64,000 bases of DNA from Candidatus Thorarchaeota archaeon (GTDB lineage Archaea; Asgardarchaeota; Thorarchaeia; Thorarchaeales; Thorarchaeaceae). The translations under genes were made by a program, and so were the position numbers. This document shows positions 1,543 through 8,623 of the stretch, one piece after another (positions within the stretch are counted from its first letter, which is position 1; the number at the start of each line of letters is the position of its first letter). The stretch is taken from the NCBI GenBank assembly GCA_048882325.1, contig JBHLRS010000009.1, forward strand, positions 32,001 to 96,000, in the 5' to 3' direction. A model generated the notes under the pieces. The model ran no database searches. It was given only the letters and a program-made list of their open reading frames with translations, and was not told the DNA's origin.

Positions 1543-3057
1543 CTATTTGTCAGATTTCTTCACAGCATCGGACAGGCTTTTGATTATACCAGTTGGTTCA
1601 AATTTCCGCTGACGTATTTTGACAAATGTGGGAACTGCTACCGTTTCGCCAACAAAAAGCGATTCACCAATTTCAAGAGTAGTGATCGAGTCCAATGAAG
1701 AGCGATCGATACCCTCACTTGACTTACCAATATGGTCCAGATCGTATGGATTTGTGCATCTGAAGATGGCTTGATTGCTACATTGACTTAGAACTGTCGT
1801 GGAGAGTTTCACCGGTCTTTGAGAGATTAAGCAGAGAAGTGCGTAGAACTTTCTACCTTCTCGTGCAATTGTTTCAATACGACTCTTTGGTAAGGCGAGC
1901 TCGTGTCGGCTCTCAGGACAAAACTGGTGAGCCTCCTCAAGAACTAGTAAGAACGGTGGAATCTGCTCACGTCGCCTTAGATGGAGAAGTTCACTAGCCA
2001 AGTGGGAAACGATGATTTGCTTCTTCTTAAGACTAATAAAATCGCTTAGGTCAATCAAGGTGATTTTCCCTGGCCTCACTACTGTATTGATGTTTGGAAC
2101 AGCCTCTTTCCCGAAAAGTCCGGTTTCATCAAGATTGATCAACCAGCCAGAAAGTGCCTCACGTGTGTTCTTGCTGATTTTTTCATCACTCTGGACATAC
2201 TCTACAACATCTGCTAACGTGTATCCCTCTCTCAGTGAGCTCTTCATCTCTGACACAACTCTGCGCAAGTCTCTGACTTGAATTGAACTCATGTCTGATA
2301 CAAGAGACCCTATCGCTTCTGCAGAAAGCGTTTGGACAGGTATCTGAAAATGTGAACCTCTGATATGCTCAATCTCAAATTGTCCTTTCGGTAATCCAAG
2401 GGCTTCAGGAGTGATATCCTGCAGATATGTGTATTCACCATGTACATCTACGACAACCACCGAAAGTCGACCTCTTTCCTTAAGCCGGGAGAGTAGCTCC
2501 TCCAGAAGAACTGACACAAAATAGGACTTGCCAGCACCGCTCATTGCTAGTATTGCTAGATGTTTGGAAAGTAAACGGTCAAGTGATGGGGCAAACTCCA
2601 GATTTTGATATGCTAACCGACCAAGATGAAGACCTTTTTCCAAGTCTAGTTTCAGAAAGGAGGCAAGAATATCTTCGTCAACTCTTCTAACAACAGCTCC
2701 TGGAGACACTGCAAAGTACGGTCGAACGGTTCGACCTTCACTCCATAGACCCAAAACCCTTGCCATAGCAATTGTGTACTGCCATCGGTCTGTTGGAAAG
2801 ATCGATCGCAGTGGTTCGCCCCTTGATTGGTATTCGCGAACTGCTTCTGCATGTTGGTAATATCGGTTTGTACGTATTAAATCTTGAACCCTCGCTATCA
2901 CTGTACCTGCATCAGTGACAACTGAAATGAATTCCCCACGGCGTGCAACAATTTCTTTAGGTCCACCTTCGAGCACAAATGAAAATTCCATTACACTTGG
3001 ACCAGCATCAGTTGAAACAACGGTTCCAAGTCGTGTGGTTGATGAAAATTCAGCCAT
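1543..3057 (-). CDS. herA: HerA DNA end-resection ATPase
   Basis: N-terminal HAS barrel; AMSGAGKS, DVHGEY, LEEAH, REGRKF; adjacent to nurA. Confidence 0.92.
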   Translation of the reverse strand: MAEFSSTTRLGTVVSTDAGPSVMEFSFVLEGGPKEIVARRGEFISVVTDAGTVIARVQDLIRTNRYYQHAEAVREYQSRGEPLRSIFPTDRWQYTIAMARVLGLWSEGRTVRPYFAVSPGAVVRRVDEDILASFLKLDLEKGLHLGRLAYQNLEFAPSLDRLLSKHLAILAMSGAGKSYFVSVLLEELLSRLKERGRLSVVVVDVHGEYTYLQDITPEALGLPKGQFEIEHIRGSHFQIPVQTLSAEAIGSLVSDMSSIQVRDLRRVVSEMKSSLREGYTLADVVEYVQSDEKISKNTREALSGWLINLDETGLFGKEAVPNINTVVRPGKITLIDLSDFISLKKKQIIVSHLASELLHLRRREQIPPFLLVLEEAHQFCPESRHELALPKSRIETIAREGRKFYALLCLISQRPVKLSTTVLSQCSNQAIFRCTNPYDLDHIGKSSEGIDRSSLDSITTLEIGESLFVGETVAVPTFVKIRQRKFEPTGIIKSLSDAVKKSDK

Positions 3058-3060
3058 TTG

Positions 3061-4224
3061 TTAGCCTCCAAAAGGATTTCTTGAACGTCTTTTCTCAAGT
3101 GTCAAATAGGTGAGCCCAGATAAAGCCATGAGACGGTCGATGATTAATCGTGTTTCATTGGTAGTAATCTTTGCCCTTGCATCAGCCTCAAGAATTGGAG
3201 TAGGCACTCCGTACTCAGGATGCTGTGAAGCTAAGGGGAGTATCGCAGAAAGAGCTTTATCCAGTTTGTCTGTGACTGCATCATCGTCCTCAGCTGAAAG
3301 ATACTCCACTCTTATTGGTAAATCATCTCTTGCAGTCTTCAGATATGTGACCCAGATTGATGATGCCCAGGCAGACAAATCATCACTCGGAGAATTTGTA
3401 TTAAGAACAAGCTCTGATGAGTATCGAAATGCAAAGGACCTTTCTCCTTCCTCCAAGAATGTATCAAGGAGATCACAGTCTCGAGATATTTTGAGTAACC
3501 ATCTATAGTCAACTCCTTGCATCATTTCGAAGATTTCTGGTTTTCGAACAATGTGAGGAAGAATTTCACCCATTATCGTAGCTACACGTGTTGATCTACT
3601 ATCTTTGACAATACCGATCAACGTTGTACCTTTCTTCCGGGCTTTGTGATAGAGTTGTTTGTAAAGAGATAGAACCTCTTGGAATTTCTCATATACAATA
3701 GAACCGGTTTGGGGACGGTCTCGAGGGTGATAGAATAAGGATCCATCCAATAGTATCAAATCCGTGTGATACTCTTCAAGAACTGATAGTGTGACTCTGA
3801 GTTCTGCTGCAATTCGTTCTAGTGATGCAAACTGGTCCAATTCAATACTAGACAATGTTAACATTAGTGGACTTATTTTTGGTTCAGGAAATGCATCAGG
3901 ATAGAAATCAACAATTGGACCATCTTCTGGTCCAAATTGGAAAATAACAGCAACCCCCCGCGTCAAGACCAAGTCCATCGATCTAAATCGTTTTCTGACC
4001 AAACCCCCATCAATCCCCGCAATTCTGAGACCTGATAGATTTGTAGGTTCTATCTTCGTGTAGAACTGTTTGTCAACAATATTCGACGCAACCGCTGGGA
4101 ATTTGCCTAGGTCAATTTTACTTCTGACATTTCTGAGGACATCGCCAAAGCGTTCTCTTGTCACCTCGATATGCTCAATCTCCTCAACCAATTTTGATAG
4201 TAACTTATCGAGGTTTCTTTCCAC
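3061..4224 (-). CDS. nurA: NurA 5'-3' nuclease
   Basis: GIDGG, LLDGSL, GIVKDS, YGVPTPILEADARAK motifs. Confidence 0.9.
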   Translation of the reverse strand: MERNLDKLLSKLVEEIEHIEVTRERFGDVLRNVRSKIDLGKFPAVASNIVDKQFYTKIEPTNLSGLRIAGIDGGLVRKRFRSMDLVLTRGVAVIFQFGPEDGPIVDFYPDAFPEPKISPLMLTLSSIELDQFASLERIAAELRVTLSVLEEYHTDLILLDGSLFYHPRDRPQTGSIVYEKFQEVLSLYKQLYHKARKKGTTLIGIVKDSRSTRVATIMGEILPHIVRKPEIFEMMQGVDYRWLLKISRDCDLLDTFLEEGERSFAFRYSSELVLNTNSPSDDLSAWASSIWVTYLKTARDDLPIRVEYLSAEDDDAVTDKLDKALSAILPLASQHPEYGVPTPILEADARAKITTNETRLIIDRLMALSGLTYLTLEKRRSRNPFGG

Positions 4225-5906
4225 TACTTCTTCACTCTCACCTTTCTGTATTCCAGAGCAGCCTTAATTAATCCCAAGTAGAGTGGATGGGGCTTGTCGG
4301 GACGAGACTTGAACTCCGGGTGGTATTGTACTCCAATCCAGAAGGGGTGGTCGACCAGCTCAATTGCGTTGATGATTCGACCAGTTGAGTCGAAAGCAGA
4401 AACTCGTAGACCCTGTTCATCCATTTTATTCAAATACCGATCAATCAGGTGATACCTGTGACGAAATCTCTCATGTACCTTGTCGGTACCATAGAGTTTG
4501 TGTAAACGAGTGCCTTCAACAATGTGAACATCATGGCCACCAAGACGCATTGTTCCACCCTTATCATCAATGCTTTTCTGTTCATCCAACAAGTCAACCA
4601 CAGGATAAAGGCTGTCAATATCTACCTCTGTGGTATGAGCTCCTTTCCAATCCATCACGTTCCTAGCAAATGCTATTGTAGAGAGCTGAGCACCATAACA
4701 AATGCCTAGGAGTGGTATCTTTGAAGTTAATGCAACAGAAGCAGCACATATCATTCCTTCGACACCACGTTCTCCAAAACCAGGAGTTAGAAGAACACCA
4801 TCTACTTCTGACAAATCTTCATTAAGAAACTCCTCAGTGCATCGTTCTTCAGTTTCAACCCATCGTATCTCAATCTTAGCACCGCATGCAGCTGCTGCAT
4901 GAACTAAAGCTTGGTTGATGCTCTTATACGAATCTCCAAGTGTCGTGTATTTGCCTGGCATTGCAATTACGACAGATTCCGTAGCAGTTTGATAGGACTC
5001 TACCATTTTGGACCAGGTTTCGGTGTTGGGTGTCTGTGATTTCATCCCGAAGTGTTCAACGAGAATGTTTCCAAGACCTTCCTCCTCGAATAAGAGTGGG
5101 AGTTGGTAAATCACAGGAATATCTGGGTTTGAAATAACCCTCTCTGTGGGAATGTTACAGAATAAGGCTATCTTCTCCTTTGCAGCGTCTGGAAGTTTGC
5201 TCTCTGCTCTGCAGATTGTTACATCTGGCTGGAGTCCTAAACTCTGAAGTGTTCTGACACTGTGCTGTGTTGGTTTGGTCTTGAACTCTCCAACTGATTT
5301 TATGTAAGGTACAAGAGTGACATGTACAACAGCGGTACGAGACCTCCCCAACTCGCGTACAATCTGTCGCACAGCCTCGAGAAATGGCATTGCCTCAATA
5401 TCGCCTACCGTACCACCTATTTCTACAAGAAGAACATCAGGAATGGGTTCTTTTTCTATAACATCCCATATTCTTTGTTTTATTCTCTCAGTAATGTGAG
5501 GAATGATTTGAACTGTCCGCCCAAGAAAGCCACCTTTTCGTTCCTCCAGAATCACTGAGATGTAAATTTGCCCTGATGTGATATTCTGAGAGGGGTGTAC
5601 CTCCATTCCAGTAAATCGTTCATAGGTTCCAAAGTCCAAGTCAATCTCTGAGATTGTAAATTCAAAACCTTCGACCGGTTGAAATGTCCAAGTCTGATCT
5701 GTCACAAAGACCTCTCCATGTTCTATTGGATTCAGAGTACCAGGGTCAATGTTCAGATATGGGTCAATCTTGATTATTCGAATACTATATCCTCTGAACT
5801 GAAACAGTTTTGCAATAGATGCAGTGGTGACTCCCTTTCCAATACCTGAGAGAACTCCACCTGTAATGAACACAAAATTTGGTCTTTCTCGCATAGAATC
5901 CAACAT
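4224..5906 (-). CDS. pyrG: CTP synthase
   Basis: TGGVLSGIGKG, KIDPYLN, KTKPTQHSV; glutaminase GICYG and QYHPE. Confidence 0.97.
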   Translation of the reverse strand: MLDSMRERPNFVFITGGVLSGIGKGVTTASIAKLFQFRGYSIRIIKIDPYLNIDPGTLNPIEHGEVFVTDQTWTFQPVEGFEFTISEIDLDFGTYERFTGMEVHPSQNITSGQIYISVILEERKGGFLGRTVQIIPHITERIKQRIWDVIEKEPIPDVLLVEIGGTVGDIEAMPFLEAVRQIVRELGRSRTAVVHVTLVPYIKSVGEFKTKPTQHSVRTLQSLGLQPDVTICRAESKLPDAAKEKIALFCNIPTERVISNPDIPVIYQLPLLFEEEGLGNILVEHFGMKSQTPNTETWSKMVESYQTATESVVIAMPGKYTTLGDSYKSINQALVHAAAACGAKIEIRWVETEERCTEEFLNEDLSEVDGVLLTPGFGERGVEGMICAASVALTSKIPLLGICYGAQLSTIAFARNVMDWKGAHTTEVDIDSLYPVVDLLDEQKSIDDKGGTMRLGGHDVHIVEGTRLHKLYGTDKVHERFRHRYHLIDRYLNKMDEQGLRVSAFDSTGRIINAIELVDHPFWIGVQYHPEFKSRPDKPHPLYLGLIKAALEYRKVRVKK

Positions 5907-6026: not shown

Positions 6027-6608
6027 TCATGAAACTGGTTGAGCAAGTATACTTGCACGCATAGCACTCTGAAAGAGATACTGAAATGCTTCCATAATGT
6101 TATGACCCTCTCTAGCGACGCTCCTGAAGACAGGCACAGATGATGGAATTCTCAAGTGTGACCTAAGCTGTTCTTCTTGTATGGCACTTGGGAGATCTTG
6201 TTTGTTGAGACACACGATTAACGGCAGAGGTCGCTCCTCCTCTTCAATCATTGACATTAACTCATTCCAACTTGCCAGATTTTCATCAAGGAGATGTTCT
6301 TGAGAGTCTGCAACAAAAATCACTCCATCGGCCCCGACCAGCACGACTTCACGTGTAGACCTATAGAAGTCTTGACCTGTGGCAGACCAAACATGTGCAT
6401 TGATTGTCCAACTATTACTCAGTGAAAAAGGAATAGTGCCAAAATCACAAAACATTGTTCTTCCAACAGTGTTCTCAATTGATGTCAGTTTCTCAGCATA
6501 GTCTAATGAAGAAAACAGCCAACGAATCGAGGTTGTTTTTCCACTCATTGCAGGTCCAAAGAAGACTATCTTGAGTCCCACCGTACGATTGCCATAGTCG
6601 ATTATCAC
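6027..6608 (-). CDS. MglA-type small GTPase
   Basis: G1 GPAMSGKTT; switch I RTMFCDF (MglA-like Arg); G3 ATGQ without Asp; GADGVIFVADSQ; G4 NKQD. Confidence 0.88.
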   Translation of the reverse strand: MIIDYGNRTVGLKIVFFGPAMSGKTTSIRWLFSSLDYAEKLTSIENTVGRTMFCDFGTIPFSLSNSWTINAHVWSATGQDFYRSTREVVLVGADGVIFVADSQEHLLDENLASWNELMSMIEEEERPLPLIVCLNKQDLPSAIQEEQLRSHLRIPSSVPVFRSVAREGHNIMEAFQYLFQSAMRASILAQPVS

Positions 6609-6623
6609 TTATCTGACCCCCAG

Positions 6624-7544
6624 TCATGTTCCCCACATGCTGTCTACCCACGCTCCGAGTCCCGACAAAGCTCCGCTTTTTACACAATCAGAGAAATCTT
6701 CATGCCATTCAGCTCTTATGAATTGAATCAAATCAGGAAGCTCTCCTCCATCCCATCCAATGGCTTCATAGAGGTTTCTCTCTGTCAATGTTGTGGATGC
6801 GCCAAGTTCCCTAGCTAGACGAATTCTTGACAATAGAGTGACTGCTCTACGGGCTGCATGAACATAGTTGTTTATCTCTTCTTCAAACACATCTTGTGTG
6901 AGTTTCTCTGACTCGTCATCTAGTTTCAGAACAGCATTGAGAATGTGCTCTGAAACTTTGAGTCCACGAAGTGACTTAGTGAGGAGTCGTCTGATACGTT
7001 CTAGAGATTGTTTCTTTCTCACCAGGATCTTGTTCACAATTTTCTTCTCAACCTCAAGACTGCTATTTGATGGTCTAACAAGTGAGAAAGTAATGGATGA
7101 TGGTGAACTCACTCTTAATATTCCACAGTTGCCTGAATTTTTGAGAATATGAGCGGTTACATCTTGGAGCGTACTTTCAGTTACTTGTACACCTAGCACT
7201 GTGAAACCGAGAGGTACAGCAAGGATCCAACCTGCAAAGTGTGAGATTCTATCCATTGCTAGTCGAAGATTCCCTGAGAGACCACAAACAATAGTCCTAC
7301 TCACCTCATAGTTGTGTTTTTCCTCCTCCCATACTGCGAGAATCTCGGATTCGGAAGTGAAATCACGCCAGAACACAAGTTTGTGTCGATGAGGACAGAG
7401 AGTAGTCAGACTCTCTGTGATATCATCTACTAGTTCGATATCCTCACCTGCGACAATCACTGGCATCCGTTCCAGTAATGCATTCAATAGAAGAGGAAAT
7501 TGGTCGCCCATCAACTCGATTAATTTCATGATTGAGTATGTCAT
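6624..7544 (-). CDS. hypothetical protein with a probable cDENN (folliculin/SMCR8-like) domain
   Basis: FPLLLNALLERMPVIVAGEDIELVDDITESLTTLCP resembles the start of the cDENN core; lies between Roadblock and GTPase genes. Confidence 0.55.
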   Translation of the reverse strand: MTYSIMKLIELMGDQFPLLLNALLERMPVIVAGEDIELVDDITESLTTLCPHRHKLVFWRDFTSESEILAVWEEEKHNYEVSRTIVCGLSGNLRLAMDRISHFAGWILAVPLGFTVLGVQVTESTLQDVTAHILKNSGNCGILRVSSPSSITFSLVRPSNSSLEVEKKIVNKILVRKKQSLERIRRLLTKSLRGLKVSEHILNAVLKLDDESEKLTQDVFEEEINNYVHAARRAVTLLSRIRLARELGASTTLTERNLYEAIGWDGGELPDLIQFIRAEWHEDFSDCVKSGALSGLGAWVDSMWGT

Positions 7545-8488
7545 GGTTCTCTCCTCGTTAACATTAAGCCACCATCAGAACCTCCTGACAGCAGCAGCTC
7601 TTTCAGATCATCTGGAACTGCGGGTTTCACTGCAGAAGCGGCAGCTAAAACTCTTCGTATCTCCTCAATGTAGTGTTTCAGTAACAGTCTCATCAAACCG
7701 AGTTTCTGGCTATCTTTATCCACCCACAGGCTAAACACGCCATTTGGAACAGCATAGATGAAATGGCGAGTTTCAGCTGTTTCACAGAGAACGGTCTGTA
7801 ATGAGCTGTTCCGGAGTGTTCGTACTACTCGTTCTGACGCATCATGAAGTGCAAAAGACATTGCAGCCAATCGGTCGTTAGTAAACCCTTCTAATGAAAC
7901 TCGGACTCCACCACTTAATGAAAGAAACACGGATCCAATATTAGGAATGCAGTCATGTACTTGGCGTAAAAGAGCTCTGAGACTAAGTGCTTGTGAGCGA
8001 TCAAGGGAAATCATGGAGCGTGATACACCATAACTTGTATCACGACCCTCTGCCACAGCAAACCCTTGAAGTACTTTCTGAGTTTCGTCGATACTATAAG
8101 AACGGAGTGGAGGTAATCTTCCGTCTACATGTTCTCTCAGAAGAAAAGAAAGTCTAGATAGATTATCCTTCATCTCAATAAATAATGCAGCTAGATTAAC
8201 TCTGGGTGCTGTTGTTACTGTCAGAAAATAGTCTGGATCATTTGGCAACGAAGCAAGAAAGACCTTCGATGTATCAGACTCCATCAGTAGATAATTGAAA
8301 TCACCATGTATGAGTTTAGCCACTCCGAAGATTGCACAGGTCGATGATGCCACAGCAAAGACTTCATCCTTGCTGAACCATACTCCTGCGCTTGCAACGG
8401 GGAGTCCATCTTTTTGGATTAAAACGACATTCTCAACACCGGTGATGGCTTTTATGTTCTGGAGAGTTTCAGTCAATTCGTCGCTCAA
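7541..8488 (-). CDS. tandem Roadblock/LC7 (MglB-like) protein
   Basis: GVENVVLIQKDGLPVAS...FAVASS, and a second repeat IGSVFLSLSGG...RLAAMSFAL. Confidence 0.85.
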   Translation of the reverse strand: MSDELTETLQNIKAITGVENVVLIQKDGLPVASAGVWFSKDEVFAVASSTCAIFGVAKLIHGDFNYLLMESDTSKVFLASLPNDPDYFLTVTTAPRVNLAALFIEMKDNLSRLSFLLREHVDGRLPPLRSYSIDETQKVLQGFAVAEGRDTSYGVSRSMISLDRSQALSLRALLRQVHDCIPNIGSVFLSLSGGVRVSLEGFTNDRLAAMSFALHDASERVVRTLRNSSLQTVLCETAETRHFIYAVPNGVFSLWVDKDSQKLGLMRLLLKHYIEEIRRVLAAASAVKPAVPDDLKELLLSGGSDGGLMLTRREP

Positions 8489-8623
8489 GTCCTCAGCTCC
8501 GGACGGAAAGTTGGGTTCAACTTAGAATCCTTCTCGCGACTATATAACCACCACACAGAATTGAAAATCAAACACTTTCTCTTTGCAAGTTCTTTAAGAT
8601 CGTGTATATGGACTGGAGCTTTA

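Follow-up and report, generated by a model that had tools for sequence, protein, structure and literature searches.

A Thorarchaeial copy of the Asgard operon for Roadblock, DENN-like and MglA-type GTPase proteins

Introduction

Among the core regulators of the Rab, Arf and Rag GTPases that act in membrane traffic and nutrient signalling of eukaryotes are Roadblock and longin platforms, together with DENN modules. The present study concerns an operon of three genes, encoding a tandem Roadblock protein (gene 1), a longin-less DENN-like protein (gene 2) and an MglA-type small GTPase (gene 3), located in a stretch of 64,000 nucleotides from a Candidatus Thorarchaeota archaeon (GenBank assembly GCA_048882325.1, contig JBHLRS010000009.1, positions 32,001 to 96,000 of the forward strand). 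This whole stretch is referred to as the window, and coordinates are positions within it. An Asgard operon of Roadblock, DENN and small-GTPase genes, occurring in most lineages, was described by Liu, Makarova, Koonin, Li et al. (bioRxiv 10.1101/2020.10.19.343400, Fig. 5b; Nature 2021). In the available text of that work the GTPase is stated not to be a Rag, an FLCN-like small-GTPase regulator is proposed, and the products are termed a ‘LAMTOR1-like’ Roadblock protein, a ‘Rab-like’ GTPase and a DENN-domain protein.

The locus is the Thorarchaeial copy of that operon and in this sense was already known. Three adjacent and co-oriented genes for a Roadblock protein, a DENN protein and a non-Rag small GTPase were found here as well, again in most lineages, with Thor-, Loki- and Hod-labelled families and several others fitting the spread given in the available text. 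As both composition and distribution match, the locus is taken to be a member of the published module. The novelty which a preliminary description of this DNA had seen in the three-part unit is thereby lost, the same text giving both the operon and the analogy to FLCN. It differs in calling Rab-like a GTPase which is clearly of the MglA type here. Points that go beyond the available text are the MglA-type GTPase with its intrinsic arginine, the fused Roadblock pair, the DENN protein without longin, the joint gain and loss of the two regulator genes, and the failure to find the module in the 28 Heimdallarchaeaceae genomes searched, with its presence in the family of a metagenome-assembled genome (MAG) labelled Hodarchaeota. 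No experimental work on the module was found in the literature on Asgard FLCN/DENN or on Thorarchaeota MglA/MglB; individual Roadblock and Rab-like proteins of Asgards have had their structures solved (PMC10933270), and an AlphaFold3 remark concerns a different Thorarchaeota MglA-MglB-like pair (PMC13408092).

Four other known systems invite comparison. The MglA-MglB pair of Myxococcus xanthus and Thermus thermophilus (3t12, 6izw, 6h5b) contains the closest solved GTPase, with the same intrinsic arginine, the same glutamine and the same lack of a G3 aspartate, and a Roadblock-fold partner from an adjacent gene. However, MglB consists of single Roadblock domains that form a homodimer, in contrast to the two diverged domains fused in one chain here, and the bacterial module is without a DENN-like third gene. 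Compared with FLCN-FNIP and C9orf72-SMCR8 (6nzd, 6ulg, 8dhb, 7mge, 6lt0, 7o2w), the Asgard DENN chain has neither a longin domain nor a second DENN partner, the client is an MglA-type GTPase with its own arginine finger instead of a Rag or Arf, and the Roadblock protein has no invariant arginine (identity 10-14%). The chains of DENND1A/B-Rab35 and of DENND10 in Commander (6ekk, 3tw8, 8p0v) differ in possessing an N-terminal uDENN/longin domain, and the client of DENND1A/B is a Rab.

Ragulator (LAMTOR1-5) with the Rags likewise offers a Roadblock platform to small GTPases, and LAMTOR2 and MP1-p14 are among the Foldseek matches of gene 1. The Asgard operon nevertheless has two Roadblock domains rather than four or more and no LAMTOR1-type scaffold, the three genes being accompanied by no additional Roadblock or scaffold gene within the operon, and its GTPase is neither of the Rag family nor equipped with a C-terminal Roadblock domain. 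The term Ragulator-like, used in the preliminary description, is thus a loose one, given that the GTPase matches MglA at E 9e-30 against 5e-5 for Gtr1_RagA.

Results

The longin-less DENN-like protein

The three open reading frames (ORFs), their ATGA overlap and the 15-nt gap all lie on the minus strand exactly where the preliminary description had placed them. Its recognition of a fused Roadblock pair (Robl_LC7 match, two modelled domains and Foldseek matches), of MglA signatures in the GTPase (GxAMSGK, G49-R50-T51, [S/T]xTGQ and NKxD, all invariant, with MglA matched at E 8.6e-30) and of a middle protein that begins with its cDENN core and lacks a longin domain (AlphaFold2 model, Foldseek and VIA-align) also held up, as set out below.

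The protein of gene 2 itself returned no match from Pfam or NCBIfam. It belongs to a small family, which forms 65 clusters at 50% identity in a set of 1.84 billion proteins and in which every named relative is a ‘hypothetical protein’ of Asgard MAGs labelled Thor, Odin, Baldr, Asgardarchaeia, Loki, Hod or Promethearchaeota. One relative (P0091), labelled ‘Candidatus Odinarchaeota archaeon’ at NCBI, is 83% identical to the Thorarchaeial protein and probably stems from a mislabelled MAG. An alignment of 37 family members (A1) served as input for an AlphaFold2 (AF2) model, which was confident (predicted local distance difference test, pLDDT, 89.5; predicted template modelling score, pTM, 0.85). 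The model opens with a cDENN-like core, without an N-terminal longin (uDENN) domain, continues into a dDENN-like helical part and ends in a conserved tail of low confidence, of the GDWIDSLWG type.

When this model was compared with the PDB by Foldseek, a check which the preliminary description had suggested for 6624-7544, the five best matches were all folliculin (3v42, 6nzd, 6ulg, 8dhb), with E-values from 1.5e-3 to 9e-3 and probabilities of 0.91-1.00; DENND1A/B and a chain of 7mge (C9orf72:SMCR8:WDR41-ARF1) followed at lower ranks. A Foldseek-independent search of 48,161 chains with VIA-align placed DENND10 first (13.5; target residues 157-357), followed by folliculin 6nzd_H and 3v42_B (12.9 and 12.8; 345-558), C9orf72 (11.1; 202-465) and SMCR8 (10.8; 705-911), with DENND1A at rank 7 (9.6; 170-367). 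The top five are thus DENN proteins only, each aligned over 187-206 residues that span approximately residues 1-285 of the model, and it is the part following the longin domain that pairs with the model (FLCN from 345, DENND10 from 157, DENND1A from 170).

At the level of sequence, Pfam gave two of the 37 family members a match to Folliculin_C (best E 4.8e-4) and one member a match to DENN (0.09). None of these matches reached the threshold, but they may be regarded as weak but specific support for a DENN identity. A search of PDB sequences with the family profile (hmmsearch) yielded no DENN protein, the only matches being spurious ones to ferritin (E 0.014). Within A1, residues R26, P28, R53 and E75 are invariant, and R83 and W106 nearly so. 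All of these just precede strands except E75, which stands at a helix end, so from the topology they should lie on one edge of the parallel sheet, and we infer this edge to be a candidate interface. The gene is present in a single copy in this genome.

The MglA-type GTPase

The closest solved relatives of the gene 3 protein are MglA of Thermus (3t12_A, E 8.6e-30) and of M. xanthus (2e-28), after which the matches to solved proteins drop to Arf, next best at 4e-9, with Arf and Rab proteins together at 1e-9 to 1e-7. Pfam reported Arf, Roc and Ras, with Gtr1_RagA at just E 4.7e-5. The protein consists of a G domain only, without a C-terminal Roadblock domain. In an alignment of 19 orthologues (A3), the motifs listed in Table 1 are conserved. 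The switch I residue R50 lines up in a pairwise alignment with the arginine of the MglA motif ERTLFFDF, whose role as an intrinsic finger has been described (PMC10933270). At the position of the G3 aspartate the protein has S75, and every orthologue has serine or threonine; the aligned MglA residue is Thr78, which replaces the canonical aspartate according to PMC3000849. Q79, invariant in the 19 orthologues, aligns with the glutamine of the MglA PGQ motif and is the equivalent of the catalytic glutamine. Every mark of the MglA class that was looked for was present, and the gene also stands beside one for a Roadblock (MglB-type) partner.

The tandem Roadblock protein

Pfam assigned Robl_LC7 to two stretches of the gene 1 protein, with E 7e-10 and a score of 38.9 bits, the cut-off being 23. 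Its AF2 model, built from an alignment of 19 orthologues (A2), has a pLDDT of 78.5 and a pTM of 0.76 and contains two complete Roadblock domains with the pattern alpha-beta-beta-alpha-beta-beta-beta-alpha. In Foldseek each of these matched Asgard Roadblock crystal structures (9jue, 7f8m), MglB (6izw, 6hjm, 3t1s) and LAMTOR2 (6b9x_B, among other entries), with TM scores of 0.66-0.84; the MP1-p14 complex was also among the matches. Two diverged Roadblock domains in one chain were found in all 19 orthologues. The N-terminal domain is much better conserved than the C-terminal one; it carries the motif GVENVVLxQxDGxPxxSxGVW, with G17, V18, Q25, D27, G28, P30, G35 and W37 invariant. By sequence, the C-terminal domain is weakly similar to 9jue_D and 7yh1_D, two Roadblock structures. 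No arginine is invariant in A2.

With regard to the arrangement of the two domains, the pTM is only suggestive of packing as an MglB-like pseudo-dimer. In the linker between them the motif (F/L)(K/P)PPLR is conserved, with P126 nearly invariant and P127 invariant, and is possibly a docking motif. It was also observed that this linker, the C-terminal tail with its PxxDxxxLL motif and the C-terminal end of the DENN-like protein (6627-6660, minus strand) are all conserved, yet modelled with low confidence; the PPLR, PxxDxxxLL and GDWIDSLWG-type stretches look like short docking motifs. One MglB C-terminal helix is known to touch MglA (PMC13408092), and it may be speculated, by analogy, that the single tail of gene 1 corresponds to it.

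Conservation and distribution in Asgard archaea

Profiles of the DENN-like and tandem Roadblock genes were used to scan 301 Asgard genomes belonging to 30 families. Lineage names used here are the labels of MAGs with exactly matching proteins, and such labels, including that of Hodarchaeota for family f12, need caution. The DENN-like gene was detected, in one copy each, in 165 of the 301 genomes and in 11 of the 30 families, the largest among them, and the tandem Roadblock gene in 170 genomes. In the Thor family (f1) the respective counts were 74 and 76 of 76 genomes, in the Loki-labelled f9 57 and 57 of 68, and in f12, where one MAG is labelled Hodarchaeota, 15 and 19 of 19. Both genes were found in all four genomes of f3, in all four of f15 and in five of the seven of the Loki-labelled f24. 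The profile search found neither of them in f5 (Heimdallarchaeaceae; 0/28), f22 (0/21), f14 (0/11) or f27 (0/11), nor in f7, f19 or f13, where the genome sampled is Jord-, Frey- and Atabey-like, respectively. Baldr- and Asgardarchaeia-labelled homologues of gene 2 are also on record. The presence and absence of the two genes are nearly identical at the family level, where they have been gained and lost jointly. The preliminary description had called the unit ancestral; this is weakened, as the module was not found in any of the 28 Heimdallarchaeaceae genomes searched, although the family with the Hodarchaeota-labelled MAG has it.

In 18 of 18 loci from nine other Asgard families the tandem Roadblock, DENN-like and GTPase genes follow one another in this order and on the same strand, which argues that the arrangement is not due to chance. 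Adjacent genes in these loci overlap or lie no more than 25 nt apart, save for three artefacts of start calling under the longest-ORF rule (L039, L046, L047). Between families the operon proteins share 20-35% identity, and the surroundings vary with the lineage, with pyrG and an HD-domain gene in Thor and the 16S rRNA gene in the Loki-labelled family f9.

A number of observations were made on f9. Here the operon is divergent from the 16S rRNA gene and approximately 300 bp from its 5' end (Rfam SSU_rRNA_archaea; L039:5542-6503, plus, 901 bits; L032:1-368, minus, 315 bits), and in more than 20 MAGs the Roadblock gene lies 200-1100 bp from a contig end. The neighbouring 16S rRNA gene explains why the operon is found at contig ends in many MAGs, and probably also why 11 of the 68 genomes seem to be without it. 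A second, longer small GTPase of 228-229 aa is encoded convergently approximately 500 bp downstream of the operon (L032:3700-4386, minus; L040:1460-2149, plus) and matches the operon GTPase with E 1e-20. In genome G147 (L039:3267-4160, minus) the match to the DENN-like profile begins about 26 codons ahead of the first ATG, GTG or TTG in the open frame, and the gene may have an unusual start codon or a differing N-terminus.

In genomes negative for the DENN-like gene, the best MglA-like GTPases (approximately 150 bits) have one to three single-domain Roadblock neighbours and no DENN-like gene. Examples are L049, L050 and L051 (G038 Freyarchaeum, G012 Atabey-like and G006 Jordarchaeales), in which an MglA-like GTPase, annotated as ‘gliding-motility protein MglA’ or ‘ADP-ribosylation factor-like protein’, is flanked by two or three individual Roadblock genes of one domain each, one layout being Roadblock-Roadblock-GTPase-Roadblock. 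Such separate genes might represent the tandem Roadblock module in unfused form. In a Heimdallarchaeum of f5 the best MglA-like GTPase gene has downstream of it one for a protein of 446 aa (L052:2062-3402, plus), and in a genome of f14 one for a protein of 415 aa (L053:2114-3361, plus); these would be partners of another kind for an MglA-Roadblock pair. Both were considered as a hidden DENN partner and rejected, with hhalign probabilities of 0.1-0.2 against A1 and no informative Pfam match.

Organisation of the locus

The features of the operon are listed in Table 1. The stop codon of gene 1 and the ATG of gene 2 share the ATGA at 7544-7541, as read from the sequence, and the spacer CTGGGGGTCAGATAA contains the Shine-Dalgarno-like G run GGGGG. 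The TTG start of gene 1 is consistent with the starts of its orthologues in A2. Upstream of this start, TTATATA and GGAGCTGAGG were picked out by eye as a candidate promoter element and a candidate Shine-Dalgarno element, respectively. None of the flanking genes is related to the trio. An HD-domain gene lies upstream of the operon on the minus strand, and a GPN-loop ATPase is encoded farther upstream on the opposite strand. Directly downstream are the closely spaced genes pyrG (CTP synthase), nurA and herA (1543-5906, minus; Pfam), with another candidate TATA box, TTTATA (5988-5983), between the GTPase stop codon and pyrG.

Table 1. Position of the operon genes, encoded domains and motifs, and candidate expression signals in the window.
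Feature	Position	Strand	Details
Candidate archaeal TATA box, TTATATA	8547-8541	minus	about 56 nt upstream of gene 1 TTG; by eye
Shine-Dalgarno-like stretch, GGAGCTGAGG	8491..8500	minus	immediately 5' of gene 1 TTG; by eye
Gene 1, tandem Roadblock protein	8488..7541	minus	315 aa; TTG start; P0001
N-terminal Roadblock domain	8129..8488	minus	residues 1-120; model secondary structure
Low-confidence linker	8000..8128	minus	residues 121-163; pLDDT 43-62
C-terminal Roadblock domain	7643..7999	minus	residues 164-282; model pattern
C-terminal tail	7544..7642	minus	residues 283-315; PxxDxxxLL conserved; short predicted helix 293-300
Gene 2, longin-less DENN-like protein	7544..6624	minus	306 aa; ATG start; P0002
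cDENN-like alpha/beta core	7065..7544	minus	residues ~1-160; five strands; AF2 model, A1
dDENN-like helical part	6627..7064	minus	residues ~161-306; AF2 model; DENN matches reach ~285
Spacer between gene 2 stop and gene 3 GTG, CTGGGGGTCAGATAA	6623-6609	minus	15 nt; read from sequence
Gene 3, MglA-type small GTPase	6608..6027	minus	193 aa; GTG start; P0003
P-loop GPAMSGKT	6534..6557	minus	residues 18-25; G18 and A20-K24 invariant (A3); GxAMSGK
Switch I G49-R50-T51	6456..6464	minus	invariant (A3)
G3 motif S75-A-T-G-Q79	6372..6386	minus	T77-G78-Q79 invariant (A3); [S/T]xTGQ
G4 motif NKQD	6195..6206	minus	residues 135-138; N135, K136 and D138 invariant; DNA-checked; NKxD

Discussion

The analysis shows the folds, catalytic motifs, operon structure, conservation and co-distribution of the genes; binding among the three products, GAP (GTPase-activating protein) and GEF (guanine nucleotide exchange factor) roles and control of a cellular process are inferences. 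The operon probably encodes a self-contained switch, composed of an MglA-type GTPase, a tandem Roadblock GAP platform and a DENN third subunit. The GTPase would supply its own catalytic arginine (R50) and glutamine (Q79). By analogy with MglA-MglB, the tandem Roadblock protein would be a covalently linked pseudo-dimer which takes the place of the MglB homodimer, binds one GTPase and, as a GAP platform, positions these two residues; the lack of an invariant arginine in the Roadblock protein is consistent with a GAP that contributes no finger of its own. Translational coupling would keep the synthesis of the DENN-like protein in pace with that of its two partners, and since this protein is both coupled and co-inherited, a stable third subunit is its most likely role. 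It may act in nucleotide exchange, as DENND1 does, or as a scaffold or modulator, in the manner of the DENN domains in FLCN-FNIP and C9orf72-SMCR8. A complex prediction for the trio (Roadblock A2 and GTPase A3, with DENN A1 as partner), run without controls, gave a score of 0.01, which speaks neither for nor against binding.

Several points weigh against this interpretation. The best Foldseek E-value for the DENN match is weak (1.5e-3), and the sequence identity of gene 2 to DENN proteins is 8-14%. Roadblock-DENN or longin-DENN fusions of the gene 2 family were not found among longer proteins, which is weak evidence and leaves the case without Rosetta-stone support. Furthermore, the labels ‘Rab-like’ and ‘LAMTOR1-like’ in the available text of Liu et al. 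differ from the assignments made here, and the identity of the two operons rests on composition and distribution.

An effector or adaptor role for the DENN-like protein has the most to be said for it among the alternatives, and is nonetheless unlikely. The protein would then read the GTP-bound state of the GTPase and link it to, for example, the membrane, the cytoskeleton or ribosome biogenesis, leaving the tandem Roadblock protein to act alone as an MglB-like GAP and possibly as a GEF. This would be in keeping with the GAP and GEF-like activities reported for MglB alone on MglA (10.1101/2023.03.05.531159; PMC13408092), with the catalytic contacts in FLCN-FNIP and C9orf72-SMCR8 being made by longin and not by DENN domains (PMC12290439), and with the DENN-negative Asgards, whose MglA-like GTPases have single-domain Roadblock neighbours only. 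On the other hand, a stable subunit is more in line with a gene that is strictly coupled in translation and inherited together with the Roadblock gene, and DENN domains of the DENND1 type touch the switch regions and act as GEFs (6ekk/3tw8; PMC3521125).

It is very unlikely that the likeness to DENN reflects a generic arrangement of an alpha/beta core plus helices, in which case gene 2 would encode a degenerate RecA/PilT-like ATPase or an unrelated fold. The family profile does fail to reach a DENN protein among PDB sequences, and Pfam is silent on the gene 2 protein itself. However, neither a Walker A nor a Walker B motif is visible in its sequence, and a degenerate P-loop ATPase was rejected since the ATPase matches end at about residue 160, whereas those to DENN proteins rank higher and cover the helical dDENN part (187-206 residues). 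The five folliculins at the head of the Foldseek results, the weak but specific Folliculin_C and DENN matches in family members and an independent profile-based DENN assignment in the available text of Liu et al. point the same way. That the three genes are adjacent for reasons of expression only, without a joint function, is extremely improbable. Direct evidence of interaction is absent, as such an explanation would have it, but order, strand and tight junctions persist in 18 of 18 loci despite 20-35% protein identity, gain and loss are joint at the family level, and the flanking genes differ, being pyrG and the HD-domain gene in Thor and 16S rRNA in the Loki-labelled family.

The self-contained switch with a DENN third subunit could be extended further, in a tentative proposal that we regard as possible but doubtful. 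The tandem Roadblock and the longin-less DENN-like protein would together form a split heterodimer of the longin-DENN kind that regulates the MglA-type GTPase, with the Roadblock pseudo-dimer replacing the longin pair, much as the preliminary description had suggested for a longin part supplied in trans, and with PPLR, PxxDxxxLL and the ...SxWG end serving as docking elements. DENN domains might then have worked at first with MglA-like switches bearing an arginine finger, and eukaryotic FLCN-FNIP, C9orf72-SMCR8 and DENND proteins might be derived from such a split archaeal complex.

Among the known prokaryotic cases of a DENN fold genetically linked to a Roadblock platform and a small GTPase, this operon is the simplest. 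Because of this simplicity, it is a good system for asking what role DENN proteins had before eukaryotes.

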